Positions 1,670 to 59,822 of a DNA stretch of 64,000 bases are shown piece after piece (the stretch's first letter is position 1; each line of letters opens with the position of its first letter). The notes beneath the pieces were generated by a model. That model did no database searches and was not told where the DNA came from. It worked only from the letters and a program-made list of their open reading frames with translations. Source of the stretch: an uncultured Candidatus Saccharibacteria bacterium (GTDB lineage: Bacteria > Patescibacteriota > Minisyncoccia > UBA6257 > 2-01-FULL-56-20). Location: NCBI GenBank assembly GCA_964360585.1, contig CAYHXC010000005.1, positions 7,947 to 71,946 on the forward strand, in the 5' to 3' direction. The position numbers and the translations under genes were made by a program.

Positions 1670-2626
1670 ATGCTCGAGATTATTCAGCGTCTAAGAGAGA
1701 AGGCCGGATTAGGTTTCTATCTTCGTCCCCAGACCTACGAAGTTTCTTTGGAAGTGGTGTTGGCTAATATTTGCATGTTCAGTCGTGACTACGCCGTTCT
1801 CGTTCCGCTTCCTCGCGAGTCCCGGAATCAGCGGATCACGAAGGGCCCGGAGATTTTTCCGAAGACCGTTAGCATCCAGTATGATCGCGAGTTCAATAAT
1901 CCGTACGTGGTTTTTACCGGCAATAGTGTTTCCAAAGAAAGTTTTATTTTTCGGGTAAATTTTGAGGTGGCGGTTGATCGAAGTGAGGTGCGACGAAGGC
2001 AGACGTTTATCACCTCTGATTACGCTCGGCTTGACCGGGCGCTTTTTGATCAGTGGACGGCTTCAAGCGAACATATTGATATTCGCGACACACGAATTAT
2101 CAGTCTCGCGAATGAGGTGAAAAAAGGAGCCAGCGACGTCTATGGTGTCCTTGCGAATATCAATGAGTACATTATTAGTCATCTTCGTTATGGCGAGCCA
2201 ATCGCGGGACTCTATTCAGTTGACCAGACACTCACAAAAACCGTCGTGGATTGCGGCGGATTCGATGTTCTTTTTATTGCGCTCGCGCGGGCGTGCGGCA
2301 TTCCGGCGCGTCTTGTTTCCGGGTACTGGGCTGGCTACGGCACGAACACTATGCACGCCTGGGCTGAAGCGCTTCTACCCGATGGCGAGTGGTTGCCGGC
2401 TGATCCATCTGTGGAACAGTTGACTCGAGGGGGACGAACGTTGAAAGGCGGCCGATTGGGATTTATCGGCAGCAATCGTCTTATCTTTTCCTACGGTACG
2501 GATATTCCGATTGTGGTTGATGGAAAAACAATGACCTTGCCATTACTCCAGAATCCAGTGCTCGTTTTCCCCGAAACGCTGGAGGATTTTTCTTTGACGT
2601 ACACAGTAAAAACAAAGCGGTTATGA
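1670..2626 (+). CDS. Transglutaminase-like domain protein
   Basis: VVDCGGFDVLFIALARACGIPARLVSGYW...MHAWAEALLPDGEWLPADPS, a Cys-His-Asp transglutaminase-like core. Confidence 0.6.
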   Translation: MLEIIQRLREKAGLGFYLRPQTYEVSLEVVLANICMFSRDYAVLVPLPRESRNQRITKGPEIFPKTVSIQYDREFNNPYVVFTGNSVSKESFIFRVNFEVAVDRSEVRRRQTFITSDYARLDRALFDQWTASSEHIDIRDTRIISLANEVKKGASDVYGVLANINEYIISHLRYGEPIAGLYSVDQTLTKTVVDCGGFDVLFIALARACGIPARLVSGYWAGYGTNTMHAWAEALLPDGEWLPADPSVEQLTRGGRTLKGGRLGFIGSNRLIFSYGTDIPIVVDGKTMTLPLLQNPVLVFPETLEDFSLTYTVKTKRL

Positions 2627-9000: not shown

Positions 9001-9232
9001 CACGTGAGAGGCGAGTCTTTGGAGCAACGTACGTTTCAATGCCGATAATTGGTTTTACGCCCGCTTTCTTCGCTTTTTTATAAAACTCGATCGCCCCATA
9101 GAGGACACCGTGGTCAGTCAAAGCCACACTTTCCATCCTCTGGTCTTTGACGTGTTTTACGAGATTGTCGATTTTGGCGAGTCCGTCCAAGAGGGAGTAG
9201 TGGCTATGAACGTGGAGATGAGTGAACTTCAT
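6050..9232 (-). CDS. dnaE: DNA polymerase III alpha subunit
   Basis: N-terminal PHP domain MKFTHLHVHSHYSLLDG, polymerase core, and OB-fold; 1060 aa. Confidence 0.95.
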   Translation of the reverse strand: MKFTHLHVHSHYSLLDGLAKIDNLVKHVKDQRMESVALTDHGVLYGAIEFYKKAKKAGVKPIIGIETYVAPKTRLSRDPGEKYYHLILLATNMVGWKNLIRLSTRAHLEGYYYKPRIDKEILREHHEGLIALSACLGGEIAQSLLAGKKDEAKRIALEYQEIMGKDNYYLEIQKHPNIPESEQLEPLLLELSKTTGVPLVATQDSHYLHKDEAEYHDILLAVQTGNRLSDDDRLSMKDEDFSMPSPEEMAEKFSFIPEAVVNTQVIANRCNLELELGGILLPHFEKPNGKSANEYLRDLVNERIGERFTKEEQTPEVLERIEYEMSVIEKTGFADYFLIVQDLINWAKDHGISVGPGRGSAAGSLLSYILRITDINPLAYDLLFERFLNPDRIQMPDVDIDFADTRRDEVLAYAREKYGQDRVAQIITFGTMAARAAIRDAGRAMGLSYDFCDQIAKLIPPTPHLELQTALDDVVELKQLYTTNTDAKKLIDVALHLEGVARHASVHACGTVISKDPLVNHVPLQFAPQDKTSIITQFEMRTVEDLGLLKIDFLGLRNLSTIQDTIRLVRETRGENINMSKLPLDDAATFALLQAGDTTGVFQFESSGMRRYMKEMKPTMLEDLIALVALFRPGPMELIPSFIKRKEGKEKITYLHPKLEPILGMTYGIGVYQEQMMQIARSLAGFTLAEADTLRKAIGKKIKSLLDEQKEKLISGMEKNGIPEKTAKAIWELFPPFARYGFNKSHAACYALIGYQTAYLKARYPLEFMASLLNAEMNDIERISFLIQEGREQKIQILPPDINRSFVTFTPEEGAGLGIRFGLLAIKNVGAAIVENIIEERSRGGSFKDFNDFVRRIHHKDLNKKSLESLAKCGTFDSLKIDRQEIIENMDEILKFSSTMKRAATESVNSLFGNNHPPTATLTLKKPNAATNDQEKLVWEKELLGFFLSDHPLNRFTNKMKEWQSTPIDQAREPQNDGRTIKILGLISRIQKIVTKNGQPMLFAHIEDFSIKPLEVVVFNDILNKTGQVWQESNVIYLKGKISWRNGEPKMICENAVSLS

Positions 9233-9329
9233 AGGGTCTAGGGGTTAGTGTAGAGGGTGGCAAATAGCAAACACTCTTGACGTGATTGTAATGGAAAAAC
9301 TCTATTACTGAAAGCCTAGTTTTTTTGTC

Positions 9330-9400
9330 GGTCATTGCGCCTGCCCGGCCGTAGTTTTAACAAAGGAGGGAGGAGCGAATCGACGTGGCAATCTCTAGTC
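9330..9400. repeat. Nested-palindrome MITE-like repeat, copy B (truncated or half element)
   Basis: GTCATTGCGCCTGCCCG...GGAGGGAGG...CGACGTGGCAATCTCTAG. It shares the left TIR and the inner-arm module with copies A, C and E, but has no right TIR. Confidence 0.55.
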
Positions 9401-9441
9401 ATTCGGTATAAGTTGTGGTAATTTTTGGATGCATTTGCCCT

Positions 9442-9514
9442 CCTAACTTTCGAGTGTTGACGAGGAATGGAAGCCCAATTGGAGTATTAGTCATTTCTCG
9501 AAAGTTAGGAGGGT
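9442..9514. other. Long hairpin (17-bp stem, CCTCCTAACTTTCGAG/CTCGAAAGTTAGGAGG) upstream of the tRNA cluster
   Basis: Perfect inverted repeat with a ~38-nt loop, directly in front of the tRNA-like 5' half at 9518. Confidence 0.5.
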
Positions 9515-9517
9515 AAA

Positions 9518-9560
9518 GCCGCCCTAGCTCAGTGGTAGAGCAGCGCTTTTGCTCCGACGC
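9518..9560 (+). other. tRNA-like 5' half (acceptor strand GCCGCCC plus D-arm) with no anticodon arm
   Basis: GCCGCCC-TA-GCTCAGTGGTAGAGCA is near-identical to the 5' part of the downstream tRNA-Thr. Its acceptor strand is complementary to the 3' half at 9706-9748. Confidence 0.45.
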
Positions 9561-9608
9561 ACTATTTATGATTAAACTAAAGAAGTCGGAGTCCCGACAA
9601 TCAATTTT

Positions 9609-9680
9609 GCCGAAGTAGCTCAGTGGCAGAGCAACTGTTTTGTAAACAGTAGGTCGTGGGTTCAAATCCCACCTTCGGCT
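9609..9680 (+). tRNA. tRNA-Thr (anticodon UGU)
   Basis: Full cloverleaf: acceptor GCCGAAG/CTTCGGC, D-arm GCTC/GAGC, anticodon arm ACTGT-TTTGTAA-ACAGT, T-arm GTGGG-TTCAAAT-CCCAC. Confidence 0.85.
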
Positions 9681-9705
9681 CAAATATGGCAAAATTATTC
9701 GTCGG

Positions 9706-9748
9706 GATAAACAGTAGGTCGTCGGTTCAAATCCGACGGGCGGCTCCA
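9706..9748 (+). other. tRNA-like 3' half (anticodon 3' strand, variable loop, T-arm, acceptor GGGCGGC, encoded CCA)
   Basis: AAACAGT-AGGTC-GTCGG-TTCAAAT-CCGAC-GGGCGGC-T-CCA. Compensatory T-stem changes relative to tRNA-Thr(UGU) argue against a decaying pseudogene. The acceptor strand pairs with the 5' half at 9518. Confidence 0.45.
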
Positions 9749-9755
9749 TGATTAT

Positions 9756-10181
9756 GTGGAGTATACTTTAAGGATGATAGAGAAAAACTACATCGATAAA
9801 TTGGCTTGGATATACGTTAAGGACGGGAAGGTATTGAGTACTCGTTCGAAAGGAAAAGATACGTATTACATTCCTGGTGGCAAGCGGGAGGGAAATGAAA
9901 CAGATTTACAGGCATTGATGAGAGAAATACAGGAAGAGTTAAATATTGAGCTTATTCCTGAGACAGTGGAGCATTTTGAAACCTTTGAAGCACAAGCTCA
10001 TGGAAAGCCAGAGGGAACGGTGGTGAGAATGACGTGCTACACGAGTGGCTTCCGAAGAGAAATAAAGGCCAGTTCGGAAATTGAGGAAGTGGTATGGCTG
10101 GATTATTCGGGCAGAGAAAAAAGTTCTCCTGTAGATAAATTAATCTTTGATTACTTGAAGAACAAAAATCTTATCGGCTAG
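9756..10181 (+). CDS. NUDIX hydrolase
   Basis: NUDIX box GGKREGNETDLQALMREIQEELNI. Confidence 0.8.
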   Translation: MEYTLRMIEKNYIDKLAWIYVKDGKVLSTRSKGKDTYYIPGGKREGNETDLQALMREIQEELNIELIPETVEHFETFEAQAHGKPEGTVVRMTCYTSGFRREIKASSEIEEVVWLDYSGREKSSPVDKLIFDYLKNKNLIG

Positions 10182-10842: not shown

Positions 10843-11427
10843 ATGATCGAGAAGAAATATCTTGAAGAGAAGTATATTCGAAATAAGAAATCAACAAGAG
10901 AGATAGCGATCGAGCTCAAGTGTTCTGAGCACAAGGTGAATTACTGGCTTGGGAAGCATAATATTTTAAAGAGGAATATCAGTGAAGCAATTTATCTGTA
11001 CCATAATCCGAATGGCGACCCTTTTGTTTTTTACGAGCCGAAGAATCAAGAGGAGTCTTTTCTTTTTGGCCTCGGCCTAGGTCTTTACTGGGGTGAAGGA
11101 ACAAAAGCGGACAAAATGTCAGTCCGTCTCGGTAATACTGATCCAAACTTGATAAAAAAATTTATAGAATTTCTTGTAGTAATATTCGGAATTGATAGAT
11201 TAGATCTTCGTTTTGGTCTCCAGTTATTTTCGGATATGAATGTCGAAGAAGCTATGGACTTTTGGATGAAAAGCCTTAGAATTTCAAAAGCTCAGTTTTA
11301 TAAGGTGGTAGTTACGCCCTCTCACAAAATTGGAACGTATCGTAAAAAGACTCTGTATGGAGTTTTGACTGTTTATTACCACAATAAGAAACTGAGAGAT
11401 TTACTAATCAGTAAATTGCCGTTGTAG
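10843..11427 (+). CDS. LAGLIDADG-like homing endonuclease (single-motif type) with an N-terminal HTH
   Basis: FLFGLGLGLYWGEGTKADKMSVRLGNTDPNLIKKFIEFL resembles the LAGLIDADG motif and following helix. N-terminal STREIAIELKCSEHKVNYWL looks like an HTH. The stop codon TAG overlaps the first bases of the intron-containing tRNA. Confidence 0.45.
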   Translation: MIEKKYLEEKYIRNKKSTREIAIELKCSEHKVNYWLGKHNILKRNISEAIYLYHNPNGDPFVFYEPKNQEESFLFGLGLGLYWGEGTKADKMSVRLGNTDPNLIKKFIEFLVVIFGIDRLDLRFGLQLFSDMNVEEAMDFWMKSLRISKAQFYKVVVTPSHKIGTYRKKTLYGVLTVYYHNKKLRDLLISKLPL

Positions 11428-11700
11428 CTCAGCTGGTAGAGCAACTCCATGGTGGATCGCAAAATCCTGCCCATCAAAGGAGAAATCCTTTGATGAATCC
11501 CGAATAACGGTTAACGGCCAAACAGTGGCTAAGACCGTGGCCCAATTGAGGGCCCGAACGACTGACAAGGGCCCCGCCAACCTTCGATGATCTTGAATAT
11601 ATCGAGGGCGGGGAAGATACAGTCTAGCCTTCTAGGATGTTTTTAAAACTAGAAGTGTAAGCGAAGGAGTAGGTCGCCGGTTCAATTCCGGCCAACGGCT
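11418..11700 (+). tRNA. tRNA-Thr (anticodon GGU) interrupted by a ~210-nt group-I-like intron in the anticodon loop
   Basis: 5' exon GCCGTTG-TA-GCTCAGCTGGTAGAGC-A-ACTCC-AUGGU (11418-11453). 3' exon AA-GGAGT-AGGTC-GCCGG-TTCAATT-CCGGC-CAACGGC-T (11664-11700). Acceptor and anticodon stems are complementary across the insertion. The 5' exon ends in U and the insertion ends in G, as at group I splice sites. Confidence 0.65.
11454..11663 (+). other. Group-I-like intron in the tRNA-Thr(GGU) anticodon loop, after position 36
   Basis: Highly structured 210 nt with multiple hairpins, ending in G. No internal ORF; the putative homing endonuclease lies immediately upstream instead. Confidence 0.5.
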
Positions 11701-14747: not shown

Positions 14748-14818
14748 GGGGGTATCGTTCAATGGTAGGACTTCGGTCTCCAAAACCGAAAACCTAGGTT
14801 CGATTCCTAGTGCCCCCG
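14748..14818 (+). tRNA. tRNA-Trp (anticodon CCA)
   Basis: Acceptor GGGGGTA/TGCCCCC, anticodon arm TCGGT-CTCCAAA-ACCGA, T-arm CTAGG-TTCGATT-CCTAG. Confidence 0.8.
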
Positions 14819-14821
14819 CCT

Positions 14822-15010
14822 TCGCCTCGCTGTAGCTCGGCTTCGGCGCGGTAAAACCCGCCATGACGAGCGAAAGCGGGATTCGGTACGCCGAAGCGTA
14901 CCTACGGCGTGATAAAACCCGCCGAAGGTTCGCGGAGGAGACCTTCGCCTTGCCAAAGCTCTAAAGAGCATAGGCGAGCTTCGTCAAAGCTTCGGCGCGG
15001 CAAAGCCCGT
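14822..15010. repeat. GC-rich structured repeat (family CTCGCCTCGCTGTAGCT...GCGAAGCGGG) directly 3' of tRNA-Trp
   Basis: Internal direct repeats GCTTCGGCGCGG(T/C)AAA(A/G)CCCG and stems GCTTCGGCG/CGCCGAAGC. Related copies occur at 25375-25500 and 63770-63850. Confidence 0.5.
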
Positions 15011-22012: not shown

Positions 22013-23637
22013 TTCTGGTTTTTATTTTTGGCGCGTATGCGCTTCTTGTTTTTAATCTCTATAACTTACAGATAGTCGGGGGCAAAGGGTATATTGCCCG
22101 CGCTGACTCTCAAGCGGCTGGCCTTGATTGGCAAGTTGGCCGGAGGGGTAGCATTTTTTTTACTGATCGGAATGGAAATTTGATGCAGATGGCCGCCATA
22201 AAGGATGTGCCGTTTGTTTTCGCTGTTCCGAAGGATATGGATGACGTGGCCGAGACGGTCCATCAGTTGGTTGCGGTCACTGGTCAGGATCCGAACGAGA
22301 TCATTACTTCTTTAAAAGGCAAAAAACAAGTGGCTTTAGAGAAAAAAGCCTCGGCCGATCTTGTCGAAAAAATCGATGATCTGAAACTCAAAGGAATTTA
22401 TACGAGTGTGAAGCCGACCCGATCGTATCCCTTGAGCTCACTCGCCGCCCATCTTTTAGGTTTTGTCAGTCCCGATAGCGAAGGGGTGGGGGAGAGCGGC
22501 CGGTACGGTGTTGAAAAATTTTACGACAATGAGCTGAAGGGCAGTTCCTCGACGACGAAGAGTGGCGGCTGGAATCAGGGCGAGGACCTCTATCTCACCA
22601 TTGAGCCGAATGTTCAGAAAGAAGCGGAACGAATTTTGAACGATATCGTTAATCGGTTTCAAGCTGTCAGCGGCTTGGCGATTGTTCAAGAACCAAAGAC
22701 CGGAAAGATTTTAGCCTTAGCCGGCGAGCCGACCTTTGATCCCAACAAATATCAGGAAAGCGATTTGAGTACATTTTTGAATCCGGCGACGCAAAAAATC
22801 TATGAGCCCGGTTCGATCTTTAAAGTTTTGACGATGGCGGCTGGTATCGATGCCGGTAAAATTACACCGCAAACAACGTATGTTGATAAAGGAAAGTTAA
22901 CCTTAAATGGCCGGACGGTCAGCAACTGGGACTATAAGACGCACGGCGCCTACGGCAAGATCACTATGACGGACGTGATTGAGAACTCGATTAACACCGG
23001 CGCAATTTTTGCCGAAAAAACGACCGGTCACAAAGTTTTCACGGACTACATGAAAAAATTCGGTTTGGATGAAGAAACGGGCGTGGAGTTGCCCGGCGAG
23101 CTTTCCGGAAATTTAAAGCGATTAAATAGCAAGGAGCCGGATGTCGCTTTTGCCACCGCCTCGTACGGTCAGGGTGTGGCGGTAACGCCTGTCGGACTTT
23201 TGAGCGCCGTTGGAGTATTAGCGAACAAAGGCCTCCTCATGCGGCCGTATGTGAACGCCGAAAGCACTGCAACTGTCGTGCGTCGCGTTGTTTCCGAAAA
23301 AACGGCCAAGCAGGTGACGGATATGATGGTCTCGGCTGTAAAGTTGAACAAAGTGGCGCACATTCCGGGCTACTCTATTGCCGGAAAAACTGGTACGGCC
23401 TTTATCCCTGACTTTAATCATGGTGGTTACACGACCGAAGTCTTCAATACGTACATCGGTTATGGTCCAACCAGCGATCCCAAATTCATCATTCTTTTCC
23501 GTTTAGAAAAACCGGTTGGCGCGCCGCTCGCGGGAACGAGCGTGGTGCCGGCTTTCCGGGAGATGGCGCAATTTATGATTAACTACTATGATATCCCTCC
23601 GGATCATCCGGAAGAAACGAAGAAAGCCACACTGTAA
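21991..23637 (+). CDS. ftsI: Penicillin-binding protein / peptidoglycan D,D-transpeptidase FtsI
   Basis: N-terminal TM, then the transpeptidase motifs SIFK (SxxK), SIN (SxN) and KTGTA. Confidence 0.85.
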   Translation: MAVRFSIILVFIFGAYALLVFNLYNLQIVGGKGYIARADSQAAGLDWQVGRRGSIFFTDRNGNLMQMAAIKDVPFVFAVPKDMDDVAETVHQLVAVTGQDPNEIITSLKGKKQVALEKKASADLVEKIDDLKLKGIYTSVKPTRSYPLSSLAAHLLGFVSPDSEGVGESGRYGVEKFYDNELKGSSSTTKSGGWNQGEDLYLTIEPNVQKEAERILNDIVNRFQAVSGLAIVQEPKTGKILALAGEPTFDPNKYQESDLSTFLNPATQKIYEPGSIFKVLTMAAGIDAGKITPQTTYVDKGKLTLNGRTVSNWDYKTHGAYGKITMTDVIENSINTGAIFAEKTTGHKVFTDYMKKFGLDEETGVELPGELSGNLKRLNSKEPDVAFATASYGQGVAVTPVGLLSAVGVLANKGLLMRPYVNAESTATVVRRVVSEKTAKQVTDMMVSAVKLNKVAHIPGYSIAGKTGTAFIPDFNHGGYTTEVFNTYIGYGPTSDPKFIILFRLEKPVGAPLAGTSVVPAFREMAQFMINYYDIPPDHPEETKKATL

Positions 23638-23769
23638 TCCCTCACCCAATGAGAAAAATAGCTTGACCATGAATTTTCCACATAAACACACAGCCTTCTT
23701 TCATAAAAAGTCGTTTTTAATAAGAGACAAAGTCGTTGCAAGACGGCTGTTTCTCATTGGGTGAGGGAT
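23637..23769 (+). repeat. SD/AUG-sequestering inverted-repeat element, copy 1 (arms ATCCCTCACCCAATGAGAAA / TTTCTCATTGGGTGAGGGAT)
   Basis: 20-bp perfectly complementary arms separated by a ~93-nt loop. The 5' arm overlaps the ftsI stop. The 3' arm ends in GGTGAGGG-ATG, which opens only a 5-codon ORF (MNPRT). Confidence 0.7.
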
Positions 23770-25805: not shown

Positions 25806-26528
25806 ATGCAAAAACTGATTATCGGGAACTGGAAGATGAATCCAGGCTCACTCGTTGAGGTAAAAAAATTGGTACAGTCTTTAGACAAGGTTAAAGTAGG
25901 AAAGAATGTTTCTGTGGCCATTTGTCCGCCATTTGTGTACCTGCCGCTTTTGAAAACCAAGTTTACACTTGGCGCGCAGGATGCGTTTGGAGAAGAGAAA
26001 GGAGCTTACACCGGAGAGATTTCACCCTCGATGCTTAAAAATCTGGGCGTCGAGTACGTTATCCTTGGTCACTCTGAACGACGGATTCACATTGGAGAAA
26101 CTGACGAACTGATTGCTAAAAAAATTAAAGGAGCTATGGTAGCCGGTTTGAAAGTGATTCTTTGCGTCGGAGAGCCGCTTGCTATGAGAAAGAAAGGAAT
26201 GGCGGCAAGTAAAAAGTATGTGGAAGGCCAGCTTAAGAAAGATTTAAGTCTCTTAAAGCCGAAGGATCGATCTAAAGTTATTGTTGCCTATGAACCTATC
26301 TGGGCGATAAGTACCATGCCTGGGGCAAAGCCGGACAGTCCAGAAGGCGCGGCGGAGATGATCGTTTCTATAAAGAAAATAACCAAAGGAAAAGTTATCT
26401 ACGGTGGATCGGTGAATGGTGCAAATGCTCGAGGATTCTTGGAAAGGAAAGAAATCGACGGAGCCTTACCCGGCGGCGCCAGTCTGAAGCCCGAAGAATT
26501 CAGGAAGATCATTGAAGCCGCCTCTTGA
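25806..26528 (+). CDS. tpiA: Triosephosphate isomerase
   Basis: IIGNWKMN...ILGHSERR...VAYEPIWAIST..GGSV, TIM signatures. Confidence 0.9.
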   Translation: MQKLIIGNWKMNPGSLVEVKKLVQSLDKVKVGKNVSVAICPPFVYLPLLKTKFTLGAQDAFGEEKGAYTGEISPSMLKNLGVEYVILGHSERRIHIGETDELIAKKIKGAMVAGLKVILCVGEPLAMRKKGMAASKKYVEGQLKKDLSLLKPKDRSKVIVAYEPIWAISTMPGAKPDSPEGAAEMIVSIKKITKGKVIYGGSVNGANARGFLERKEIDGALPGGASLKPEEFRKIIEAAS

Positions 26529-26658
26529 TCCCCACACCTAATCAGGAAAGAAAGAAGTATCAGAGACGGACTTTAATTCGAGTCTATATATTAGAAAAGG
26601 GAAGTTTTGAAAGGATGGGGCTGTTTTAGAGAGAAAATTCCTGGTTAGGTGTGGGGAT
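26528..26658 (+). repeat. SD/AUG-sequestering inverted-repeat element, copy 3 (degenerate: the 3' arm ends GGGGATTG, with no ATG)
   Basis: Arms ATCCCCACACCTAATCAGGAAA / TTCCTGGTTAGGTGTGGGGAT. The 5' arm overlaps the tpiA stop codon, and no CDS follows. Confidence 0.65.
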
Positions 26659-38016: not shown

Positions 38017-38075
38017 AGCTGGCACACTTGGAAAAAAGAAGGGGAGGCCGTAAGATTGTATCGCACTAATATGCG

Positions 38076-38209
38076 TCCCCGCACCTAATGGGAAGTGGGG
38101 TGGTAAAAATAGAGTTAGTTAACTGATCATTATGATTATGCAAAAAGTCGGCAACCTTAGAGCGGAACTCCGTTTCTTAGAAACGGTTCTTCCCATTAGG
38201 TGAGGGGAT
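38076..38209 (+). repeat. SD/AUG-sequestering inverted-repeat element, copy 4 (the 3' arm supplies the SD and ATG of the yvcK-like gene)
   Basis: Arms TCCCCGCACCTAATGGGAAG / CTTCCCATTAGGTGAGGGGA-TG. The ATG at 38208 is the CDS start. A small hairpin CCGTTTCTTAGAAACGG with a U-run lies just 5' of the 3' arm. Confidence 0.7.
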
Positions 38210-39886: not shown

Positions 39887-40020
39887 ATCCCCACACCTAA
39901 CCGGAAATGAGGAATGAAAAAGTAATTAACCAATGAATCATATATCTTTTATAAAAGAGGCGAAAATTATCCTAGGATTTAGTCGCTTTAGAGCGACTGT
40001 TTCCGGTTAGGTGTGGGGAT
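39887..40020 (+). repeat. SD/AUG-sequestering inverted-repeat element, copy 5 (the 3' arm supplies the SD and ATG of the ABC ATPase gene)
   Basis: Arms ATCCCCACACCTAACCGGAAA / TTTCCGGTTAGGTGTGGGGAT-G. It begins 7 nt after the ppiB stop and contains a promoter-like TTAACC-17-TATAAA in the loop. Confidence 0.7.
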
Positions 40021-43808: not shown

Positions 43809-43940
43809 ATCCCCACACCTATTGGGAAATCTAGGAAAAAATCAACGAGTTAATTATTTATTTATCTATGCAAAAGTCGTCAATTTATAACTTAGGGTAT
43901 GGCCGTCCGCAAACGGCTGTTTCCCAATAGGTGTGGGGAT
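43809..43940 (+). repeat. SD/AUG-sequestering inverted-repeat element, copy 6 (the 3' arm supplies the SD and ATG of typA)
   Basis: Arms ATCCCCACACCTATTGGGAAA / TTTCCCAATAGGTGTGGGGAT-G. A small hairpin CCGTCCGCAAACGG with a U-run lies just before the 3' arm. Confidence 0.7.
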
Positions 43941-59241: not shown

Positions 59242-59325
59242 GCGCGGGTGGCGAAACTGGCAGACGCACTACCTTGAGGTGGTAGCGCCCGCAAGGGCTT
59301 GCAGGTTCAACTCCTGTCCCGCGCA
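59242..59325 (+). tRNA. tRNA-Leu (anticodon GAG), long variable arm
   Basis: GTGGCGAAACTGGCAGACGC D-arm, anticodon arm CTACC-TTGAGGT-GGTAG, a long variable arm, T-arm and acceptor GCGCGGG/CCCGCGC. Confidence 0.8.
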
Positions 59326-59822
59326 CACATGAAAATTGTCACACCTTCTGGTGTAGCAATTTTTATATGCGGGACAGGAGTTGAACGAGAAGGTGGGGTC
59401 GGGAGGAGGTGTCGTCCTCCCGTTTCGGAATTTCTCAAAACCGACCGCGTGCCGCCTTAGCTTCAGCAGTGGCGCAGGGTTTTGAGAACGCAGACCGAAG
59501 GTCGAGTAGTGAAATTTCCTCTCCCGCGCACACTTGAAATAATTTCTAGAAAACGGTAATTTAAAGTTTAACGCACTCAACGGGGAGGTAGTTGTGGCTA
59601 GAAAGCGCAGGGCTCCGAAAAACCTGGCGAAGATTGCGGCCAAGGCACGGCATCATCTCGAGCAACGAGGCAGAGAACCGAATATCGGCTGGCGGCCCCC
59701 GCCCAAGCCCATCACAAAGCGAAGCGCTTCCGAAACTAGTTACTAGCTCTTTTCTCTGAATCCCTTTTCCGCCGTCTCCGGATGCGCGGATTTTTATTTC
59801 TCCTAATTTTAATTCTTGGGAC

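Follow-up and report, generated by a model that had tools for sequence, protein, structure and literature searches.

How is a bacterial locus to be read in which two complementary halves of a tRNA gene lie on either side of a complete tRNA gene of the same kind? The question is raised by a tRNA-Thr(UGU) locus at positions 9518 to 9748 of the window, by which we mean the whole 64,000-nucleotide stretch analyzed here (contig CAYHXC010000005.1 of assembly GCA_964360585.1, from an uncultured Candidatus Saccharibacteria bacterium). An earlier note, made from the letters of the window, had described the halves and had listed three explanations: a tRNA gene interrupted by a segment carrying tRNA-Thr, a trans- or cis-split tRNA, and a recombination scar. 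We consider it likely that a palindromic insert lacking open reading frames (ORFs) destroyed the resident tRNA gene and supplied a replacement for it, the outer halves being a relic.

All of the elements described in that note are present, and all lie on the + strand. The sole tRNA called at the locus by ARAGORN and Rfam is a complete tRNA-Thr(UGU) at 9609 to 9680/81 (77.5 bits), with acceptor strands GCCGAAG/CTTCGGC and no encoded CCA; the ARAGORN check that had been suggested returned this central gene only. A repeat search found direct repeats of it on both sides, with 9518 to 9551 resembling 9609 to 9642 (79%) and 9708 to 9746 resembling 9643 to 9681 (87%), which confirms the proposed paralogy. 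The outer 5' part (9518 to 9551, tRNA positions 1 to 35) reads GCCGCCC TA GCTC AGTGGTA GAGC A GCGCT TTTG, and the outer 3' part (9708 to 9748, positions 36 to 73 plus CCA) reads T AA ACAGT AGGTC GTCGG TTCAAAT CCGAC GGGCGGC T CCA. The outer acceptor strands, GCCGCCC (9518 to 9524) and GGGCGGC (9738 to 9744), are mutually complementary, as had been reported; the strands of the inner gene likewise match and are distinct from these. One compensated pair distinguishes the outer T stem (GTCGG/CCGAC) from the inner one (GTGGG/CCCAC), and among the tRNAs of the window an encoded CCA (9746 to 9748) follows the outer 3' part only. The halves had been located correctly except that AAACAGT starts at 9709 rather than 9706, with the 3' similarity beginning at T9708. 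The 5' anticodon strand and loop had been thought missing, but similarity runs on to 9551, position 35, and the halves abut exactly within the anticodon (UG^U, the caret marking a junction here and below), the break falling between G35 and U36.

The segment between the halves is a 156-nt insert (9552 to 9707) without an ORF, consisting in order of a hairpin, a leader, the complete inner tRNA, and a trailer. The hairpin (9552 to 9591, CTCCGAC...GTCGGAG, with a 7-bp stem) is recognized from the predicted fold and from homologous inserts. The leader TCCCGACAATCAATTTT and the first 3 nt of the inner tRNA (GCC) form the left arm (9592 to 9611) of a 20-bp inverted repeat that wraps the inner tRNA, and the right arm consists of the last 20 nt of the trailer (GGCAAAATTATTCGTCGGGA, 9688 to 9707), which end where the insert ends; neither this repeat nor the hairpin figured in the earlier note. 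A D-arm motif occurs three times where 0.02 occurrences are expected and a T-loop motif five times where 0.29 are expected, and the tRNA-like features of the locus are far beyond chance. The 231-nt stretch from one outer end to the other has a predicted fold of -83.7 kcal/mol (z = -5.8), in which the insert is surrounded by the acceptor, D, and T arms of the outer gene. The working gene is presumably the inner tRNA-Thr(UGU). The nested locus is also spanned by a 116-aa minus-strand ORF (9399 to 9749); it is called as a gene on a second contig of the locus (L001), has no Pfam match, and is almost certainly spurious.

Comparison with relatives bears on the origin of the two genes. The adjoining 1060-aa ORF encodes DnaE, with best matches in Patescibacteria (Paceibacteria/Liptonbacteria-like), and an identical DnaE protein is found on Hainich groundwater contigs; the window belongs to a Patescibacteria (candidate phyla radiation) genome from that groundwater. 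In the four closest relatives, whose DnaE is 83 to 86% identical, a tRNA-Thr(UGU) gene lies at the same place upstream of dnaE and, as far as its sequence is present, has no insert; it is complete in three, and the contig of the fourth (L009) stops inside the gene. One intact gene (L010; GCCGCCC TA GCTC AGTTGGTA GAGC A ACTGT TTTGTAA ACAGT AGGTC GTCGG TTCGAAT CCGAC GGGCGGC) shares its acceptor stem, T stem, and 3' anticodon strand with the outer gene. When joined, the outer halves are identical to this orthologue at 68 of 72 positions, compared with 60 of 72 for the inner gene, and the inner gene is identical at 69 of 72 positions to tRNA-Thr genes of other Patescibacteria genomes. Outer positions 1 to 26 match the orthologue save for one D-loop base, and the outer 3' part differs from it by 1 nt. 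The orthology and the identity counts show that the outer halves are the resident tRNA-Thr(UGU), interrupted after the split from those relatives, and that the inner gene is a different allele rather than a fresh local copy. The comparison across related genomes that had been proposed as a check has therefore identified the flanks as the orthologue of an intact gene and not as unrelated sequence.

The main departure lies at outer positions 27 to 31, which read GCGCT and not ACTGT, so that the joined anticodon stem (GCGCU/ACAGU) has only 3 of 5 pairs. Stems of the form xCGCT are present in related genomes (L005 and the outer genes of L062 and L122), and co-conversion from a donor allele is a possible source of the GCGCT strand. 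The encoded CCA also occurs in the orthologues of L005 and L007, and the same T stem occurs in L010. The CCA and the compensated T stem, correctly described earlier and read there as a sign of function, are thus inherited from the resident gene and for that reason do not prove present function.

Some features of the surroundings differ among contigs. Downstream of the intact tRNA-Thr(UGU) of L005, the relative with 86% identical DnaE, at about 2100 to 2400 (minus strand as displayed), there is a LAGLIDADG-like motif (..LGLGLYWGEGTKAD..) that could belong to a homing endonuclease near the tRNA locus; the corresponding region of the window holds a NUDIX gene instead. Several contigs of this organism and of relatives end near the tRNA-Thr locus, two of them (L003 and L004) at window position 9456/9457 and three (L006, L008, and L009) within or beside the gene, and these breaks are consistent with repeats or strain variation there.

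A nest of this kind could also have arisen by local rearrangement without a mobile element, through partial tandem duplication or template switching at the anticodon arm and subsequent compensatory divergence of the working gene. The anticodon arm of tRNA-Thr(UGU), ACTGTTT-TGT-AAACAGT, is a near-palindrome, the inner gene and the outer 3' part have a 15-nt tract (TAAACAGTAGGTCGT) in common, and at another nested locus (L055) the inner and outer genes have the same stems, all of which would favor such an origin. It does not account for the far better fit of the outer halves to the L010 orthologue than to the inner gene, for the absence of the insert from close relatives, or for a hairpin, leader, and trailer that are homologous across unrelated genomes with identical junctions. 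Moreover, the four compensated stem changes would imply aged, mutated fossils, yet the outer gene differs from L010 by 1 to 2 nt. We regard local rearrangement as unlikely.

Whether the halves are exons of a spliced gene was assessed by in silico removal, in which every possible segment around the inner tRNA was excised and ARAGORN was used to look for a tRNA-Thr(UGU) across the junction. When exactly the 156 nt were taken out of the window, it called no normal tRNA, just aberrant solutions with long extra arms, and among 24 machine-tested loci precise removal restored a normal tRNA-Thr(UGU) call only in L097; L028 gave a shortened 70-nt call. Inserts in the D arm produced many spurious calls that the scan did not resolve, and two such loci (L062 and L091) were judged by eye. 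By eye, the outer gene looks intact in these two and in L140, L141 (layer 2), and L151. Most first-layer outer genes are defective: all members of a second type of anticodon-loop insert lack three bases of the 3' anticodon strand, and other outer genes stop in the D loop, no longer possess a T arm, have acceptor mismatches, or carry extra tRNA-less hairpins in the D or T loop. Decay grows outward, with outer layers more degraded than inner ones, and an intact copy accompanies every interrupted Thr(UGU) copy seen.

Signatures of known splicing systems were also sought. A cmscan search of 9200 to 9900 against Rfam gave no group I intron match at E ≤ 10, and the last base of the 5' exon is G9551 and that of the insert A9707, at odds with the group I rule of U at the exon end and G at the intron end; a group I intron was rejected for its missing core match and its wrong end bases. 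The minimum-free-energy fold of the locus contains no bulge-helix-bulge (BHB), a motif of two 3-nt bulges with 4 bp between them that would be expected at both junctions; on inspection of the sequence, the junctions G9551^C9552 and A9707^T9708 can be drawn only as facing each other in a symmetric internal loop leading from the anticodon stem to a CCGACG/CGTCGG helix. An archaeal-type BHB intron or split tRNA was likewise rejected, for lack of BHB geometry and because the joined exons are noncanonical. The other Rfam matches at E ≤ 10 were noise, namely, microRNA-like matches to the hairpins and a tmRNA T-arm fragment, and a tmRNA-like reading was rejected, since the G3:U70 pair is lacking and nothing beyond that fragment resembles tmRNA. 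No EndA or RtcB-type ligase was found among the nine neighboring ORFs scanned.

Removal at the RNA level could still be imagined if the palindromic units were intervening sequences spliced by an unrecognized bacterial endonuclease and ligase, with RNase P and RNase Z freeing the inner tRNA, so that a nested precursor would yield two or more tRNAs and, in the window, both tRNA-Thr species would be made. The ends of the insert can pair beside the anticodon stem, the outer arms form around it in the stable predicted fold, the helices are kept by compensatory change, several positions in the tRNA are used for insertion, as in archaeal introns, and several outer genes elsewhere are intact after removal. 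Against this stand the 3-of-5 anticodon stem and the lack of a normal call for the joined product of the window, outer copies that mostly lack segments no splicing could restore and that decay outward, the missing BHB geometry and group I match, the constant presence of an intact companion copy, and a review according to which bacterial tRNA genes are interrupted only by self-splicing introns (PMC4390854). We judge RNA-level introns to be quite improbable, and a split or spliced tRNA is not supported for the window. The outer-gene decay, the intact companion copies, the lack of a group I or BHB signature, and the cited review together favor a DNA-level insertion that would have killed the resident gene and left the inner tRNA as the working copy. 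The outer halves would then be a young relic with no part in a spliced tRNA, and only the inner tRNA would be functional. Of the explanations given earlier, the interruption by a tRNA-Thr-carrying segment is borne out by uninterrupted orthologues in relatives and similar inserts in many genomes, the trans- or cis-split tRNA fails on the evidence above, and the recombination scar is right only insofar as the outer halves are a relic.

The similar inserts came from a scan of one genome per GTDB species with the conserved anticodon/T-arm sequence as query, which yielded at least 120 Patescibacteria loci. By inspection, 22 of the 120 loci listed have an intact tRNA-Thr(UGU) with a complementary leader and trailer inside the remains of another tRNA-Thr(UGU), and in three more a disrupted copy is directly adjacent to a tRNA-Thr(UGU); nested tRNA-Thr(UGU) thus occurs in about one in five of the 120 sampled Patescibacteria species listed, these counts resting on inspection because automated counting of the outer remnants gave too much noise. 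The insertion points fall within the anticodon loop, D stem, or D loop. The window type in the anticodon loop has the layout TTTTG^YYCC..hairpin..TCCCGA..AATTTT(tRNA)..GGCAAAATT..TCGGGA^TAAACAG, and the second anticodon-loop type follows ..CAG-CCCCG(N8-10)(tRNA)..CGGGG^TAAATAGGTC. The D-stem type reads GGTAGA^CCTGCCCGCC..(tRNA)..GGCAGGCGGG^GCAACG, and a D-loop type is seen in L091. When metagenomes were searched for the 3' junction of the window type, 21 more stretches came up, the majority being bona fide members.

Eleven distinct window-type inserts (156 to 166 nt) can be aligned over their full length: those in L097 and L138 are 156 nt long, as in the window, and those in eight further assemblies are 160 to 166 nt. 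The layout and the junctions TTTTG^YYCC...GGGA^TAAAC are common to the window and at least 10 other assemblies, and the termini of all 11 inserts follow YYCCGAY...RTCGGGA, compared with CCCCG...CGGGG or CCTGCCCGCC...GGCAGGCGGG in the other families. The hairpin stem of L097 is CCCCGAC/GTCGGGG against CTCCGAC/GTCGGAG in the window, and that of the L132-L151 group (CTCCGAT.../...ATCGAGAG) also differs from the window stem by compensatory change. Across all families, cognate leader/trailer duplexes average -24.2 kcal/mol and noncognate ones -13.8 kcal/mol (n = 28, P = 4e-11), which indicates that complementarity is kept as the sequences change, although the test is weak inside the window-type subfamily alone, where the ends are conserved. 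The tRNA exon sequences flanking the inserts are nearly invariant across the phylum.

Nests can have several layers, about four in L141 and two or three in L034, L103, L119, L122, and L060, with serial 3' remnants that each follow ...GGG(A/G)^TAAA. Like-in-like nests also occur for Thr(GGU), Trp, and Tyr, and probably for Glu; nests not of the Thr(UGU) type lie at L131 2584 to 2656, L063 857 to 930 (-), L128 6108 to 6182 (-), L055 5853 to 5927, L064 5820 to 5893, L117 3417 to 3501 (-), and L144 2808 to 2883 (-). The outer genes of these other nests often hold short tRNA-less palindromes (CCCCG...CGGGG or CCTGCCTGCC^GGCAGGCAGG) in the D loop, D stem, T loop, or anticodon. Inner and outer anticodons match in the inspected nests; the one exception is L131, in which a Thr(UGU)-type 3' remnant follows a Thr(CGU) gene.

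This distribution bears on two further alternatives. The first is that the locus is an assembly artefact, a chimeric join of two tRNA-Thr strain variants, as the low coverage (about 5x) and the several contigs of the same organism that end some 60 nt upstream (9456/9457) might suggest. Contig L001, however, is identical across the whole locus, and dozens of independent assemblies show this architecture with arms that are individually complementary in each case, so that an artefact is scarcely credible. The second is that the insert is the eroded remnant of a larger integrated element bearing tRNA-Thr (a phage, plasmid, or island of the tRNA-dependent-lysogeny type) that had entered the anticodon loop and was reduced to 156 bp by deletion. 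Anticodon loops are often integrase targets, gene content downstream of the tRNA varies (the NUDIX gene of the window is absent in L005), and a phage strategy of disrupting and replacing a tRNA gene is documented (PMC10865867). Erosion would nonetheless not converge on units of 156 to 166 bp with matching ends in at least 11 independent assemblies, there is no integrase within about 5 kb, and viral contigs, scanned for two of the junction motifs, yielded either no match or two that were due to chance and had no tRNA. An eroded element is very unlikely.

If a palindromic insert did destroy and replace the resident gene, the 156-bp segment would have entered between G35 and U36 and ruined the resident tRNA-Thr(UGU), and the same-anticodon tRNA of the insert would have kept the cell alive. 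The replacement would become the working gene and then the next target, and repeated rounds would build the multi-layer nests. Such inserts would spread at the DNA level, by either of two routes: transposition by an enzyme acting in trans on the hairpin ends, or homing-like recombination or transformation in which the conserved tRNA exons serve as homology arms. Under the second route, exon sequence beside the insert would be co-converted, which could produce both the constant junction-proximal sequences of each family and the chimeric GCGCT. In L097 and L140 insertion is precise between G35 and U36 and has left no target-site duplication; the targets are stem-loops of the tRNA gene, and the ends of the inserts are hairpins with family-specific termini. 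Taken with the near-palindromic anticodon arm, these features point to hairpin or cruciform DNA that would be recognized by an enzyme supplied in trans. The leader/trailer helix may serve a mobility step or the maturation of the inner tRNA.

Several observations weigh against this account. Pfam searches of the nine neighboring ORFs found no transposase, integrase, or homing nuclease within about 5 kb; the matches were to NUDIX, a PaaX_M domain, and, below threshold, T4SS-pilin. Neither a polymorphism between filled sites and empty ones (uninterrupted GCCGCCC...ACTGTTTTGTAAACAGT...GGGCGGC) nor a circular junction (...CGTCGGGA^CTCCGACG...) was directly observed, and there is no target-site duplication. 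The first-layer outer genes of L097, L140, L062, L091, L151, and L141 would be good tRNAs if the inserts were removed at the RNA level, and splicing is conceivable for these. One insert subfamily has flanks that are more alike than its cargo tRNAs, and to explain this would take either an exchange of cargo or a strong constraint acting on the flanks. At L055, acceptor and T arm are common to the inner and outer genes, which have the look of a local duplication. Finally, all of the sequences come from metagenome assemblies.

A second palindromic unit lies directly 5' of the outer gene at 9434 to 9517 (+ strand), where the earlier note had rightly placed a 17-bp hairpin: its 28-nt arms (9434 to 9461 and 9490 to 9517) form 17 perfect base pairs. 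The unit has the form TTTG^CCCTCCTAACTTTCGAG-loop-CTCGAAAGTTAGGAGGG^TAAA, with termini CCCTCC...GGAGGG inside TTTG...TAAA flanks like those of the anticodon-loop inserts, and it appears to be a unit of that general type that lacks a tRNA. About 200 nt around it (9320 to 9517) are absent from the relatives, which have at that place a promoter-like CTTGTAAAAA-N16-TA[CG]GATAAA; this box is missing in the window, and a promoter scan found no sigma-70-like site in 9200 to 9800.

The closest functional parallel is the tRNA-dependent lysogeny of actinobacteriophages, in which insertion disrupts an essential host tRNA gene and the element supplies the same isotype (Guerrero-Bustamante and Hatfull 2024, PMC10865867). 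In both cases foreign DNA sits in an essential tRNA gene, the host gene is not rebuilt, and a same-anticodon replacement is supplied. The phage element, in contrast, is a complete temperate phage that has a tyrosine integrase and an attP/attB core, whereas the insert of the window is 156 bp long, ORF-less, bounded by a hairpin and inverted repeats, placed inside the anticodon, chromosomal, and recursively nested, and no phage genes or integrase were found near the locus. Mobile archaeal tRNA introns behave like transposable units, at least as Fujishima 2010 is cited in PMC10714607, and population heterogeneity exists at the tRNA-Thr(GGU) locus of Caldiarchaeum (Sugahara 2012, PMC3293823). Those introns resemble our inserts in being short and structured and in occupying the anticodon loop and noncanonical positions, but they carry BHB motifs, and their splicing by EndA and a ligase yields a functional tRNA; our inserts lack a BHB, reside in a bacterium, contain a whole tRNA gene, and interrupt outer genes that decay.

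The window-type inserts are multicopy with conserved termini, as in miniature inverted-repeat transposable elements (MITEs) and palindromic elements; they also have inverted-repeat ends. Rickettsia palindromic elements, REP/BIME sequences, and IS200/IS605-derived PATEs are ORF-less, hairpin-forming, and multicopy and have family-specific termini, and IS200/IS605-type elements insert beside a short specific sequence without target-site duplication. The absence of a target-site duplication suits such hairpin-dependent (IS200/IS605-like) insertion and not classical MITEs. To our knowledge, none of these palindromic elements bears a tRNA gene as cargo or inserts preferentially into the tRNA gene that matches it. 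Bacterial group I introns in tRNA-Leu(UAA), tRNA-fMet, tRNA-Ile, and tRNA-Arg also sit in the anticodon loop, but the insert has no group I core, its exon ends in G and the insert in A, its 156 nt are mostly tRNA, and the joined exons are unsound. Partial tRNA copies beside an intact gene recall the att duplications of integrative elements; these, however, comprise the 3' part only, flank kilobases of DNA, and leave an intact gene that is a hybrid of resident and element, whereas here 5' and 3' parts flank a self-consistent foreign gene within 231 bp.

Other repeats and inserts were observed in the window apart from this locus. The tRNA-Thr(GGU) gene at 11418 to 11700 is interrupted by a 210-nt insert (11454 to 11663) after the anticodon GGT; its exons are identical to an intron-less gene in L007, and it is called by neither ARAGORN nor Rfam. 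Homologous inserts (..GCCC-hairpin-..AATCCCGAATAACGGTTAAAGGCC..) occur in Thr(GGU) genes of L005, L015, L032, L044, L059, L103, and L104, and together they form a conserved intron family, probably of divergent group I introns, for which Rfam gives no match at E ≤ 1. Intergenic elements of about 130 nt occur at five places, 23637 to 23769, 26528 to 26658, 38075 to 38209, 39887 to 40020, and 43809 to 43940. Each has arms of 20 to 21 nt (ATCCCCACACCTAAT.GGAAA and TTTCC.ATTAGGTGTGGGGAT) about 90 nt apart that are 85 to 100% complementary within a copy (100% in three, 95% in one), and the copies differ from each other. In three of the five, the right arm ends in AGGTG.GGGGATGAA, a Shine-Dalgarno-like box with the ATG of the downstream ORF (38208, 40019, and 43939). 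These elements match no Rfam family and, judging from this arrangement, may be long hairpins of the 5' untranslated region in which the ribosome-binding site is sequestered. The 3' end of tRNA-Leu(GAG) (GTTCAACTCCTGTCCCGC; 59305 to 59386) has a perfect 18-nt inverted copy 46 nt downstream (59369 to 59386), which would give a long hairpin with the T arm and acceptor strand. Directly downstream of tRNA-Trp (14748 to 14820), overlapping imperfect inverted repeats (14828 to 15009; 34-nt arms, 71% complementary) begin with CGCTGTAGCTCGGC, which resembles a tRNA 5' end.

We found no description of tRNA genes nested within tRNA genes in the candidate phyla radiation or other bacteria, although our literature coverage is incomplete and priority is unproven. 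Patescibacteria harbor a widespread and apparently undescribed class of ORF-less palindromic inserts of about 120 to 170 bp that probably disrupt and replace an essential tRNA gene, in layers. For annotation, tRNA finders see the inner gene only, gene callers place the spurious 116-aa ORF there, and the leftover halves can be mistaken for split tRNAs or att sites. Should RNA-level removal prove true after all, Patescibacteria would have protein-spliced, multi-intron tRNA genes of archaeal style. If instead the palindromic inserts do disrupt and replace resident genes at the DNA level, they would be minimal "addictive" selfish elements with a tRNA as sole cargo, they would constitute a new route for the exchange of tRNA alleles between lineages, and they would offer a living bacterial example for the debate on the origin of split and intron-containing tRNA genes.

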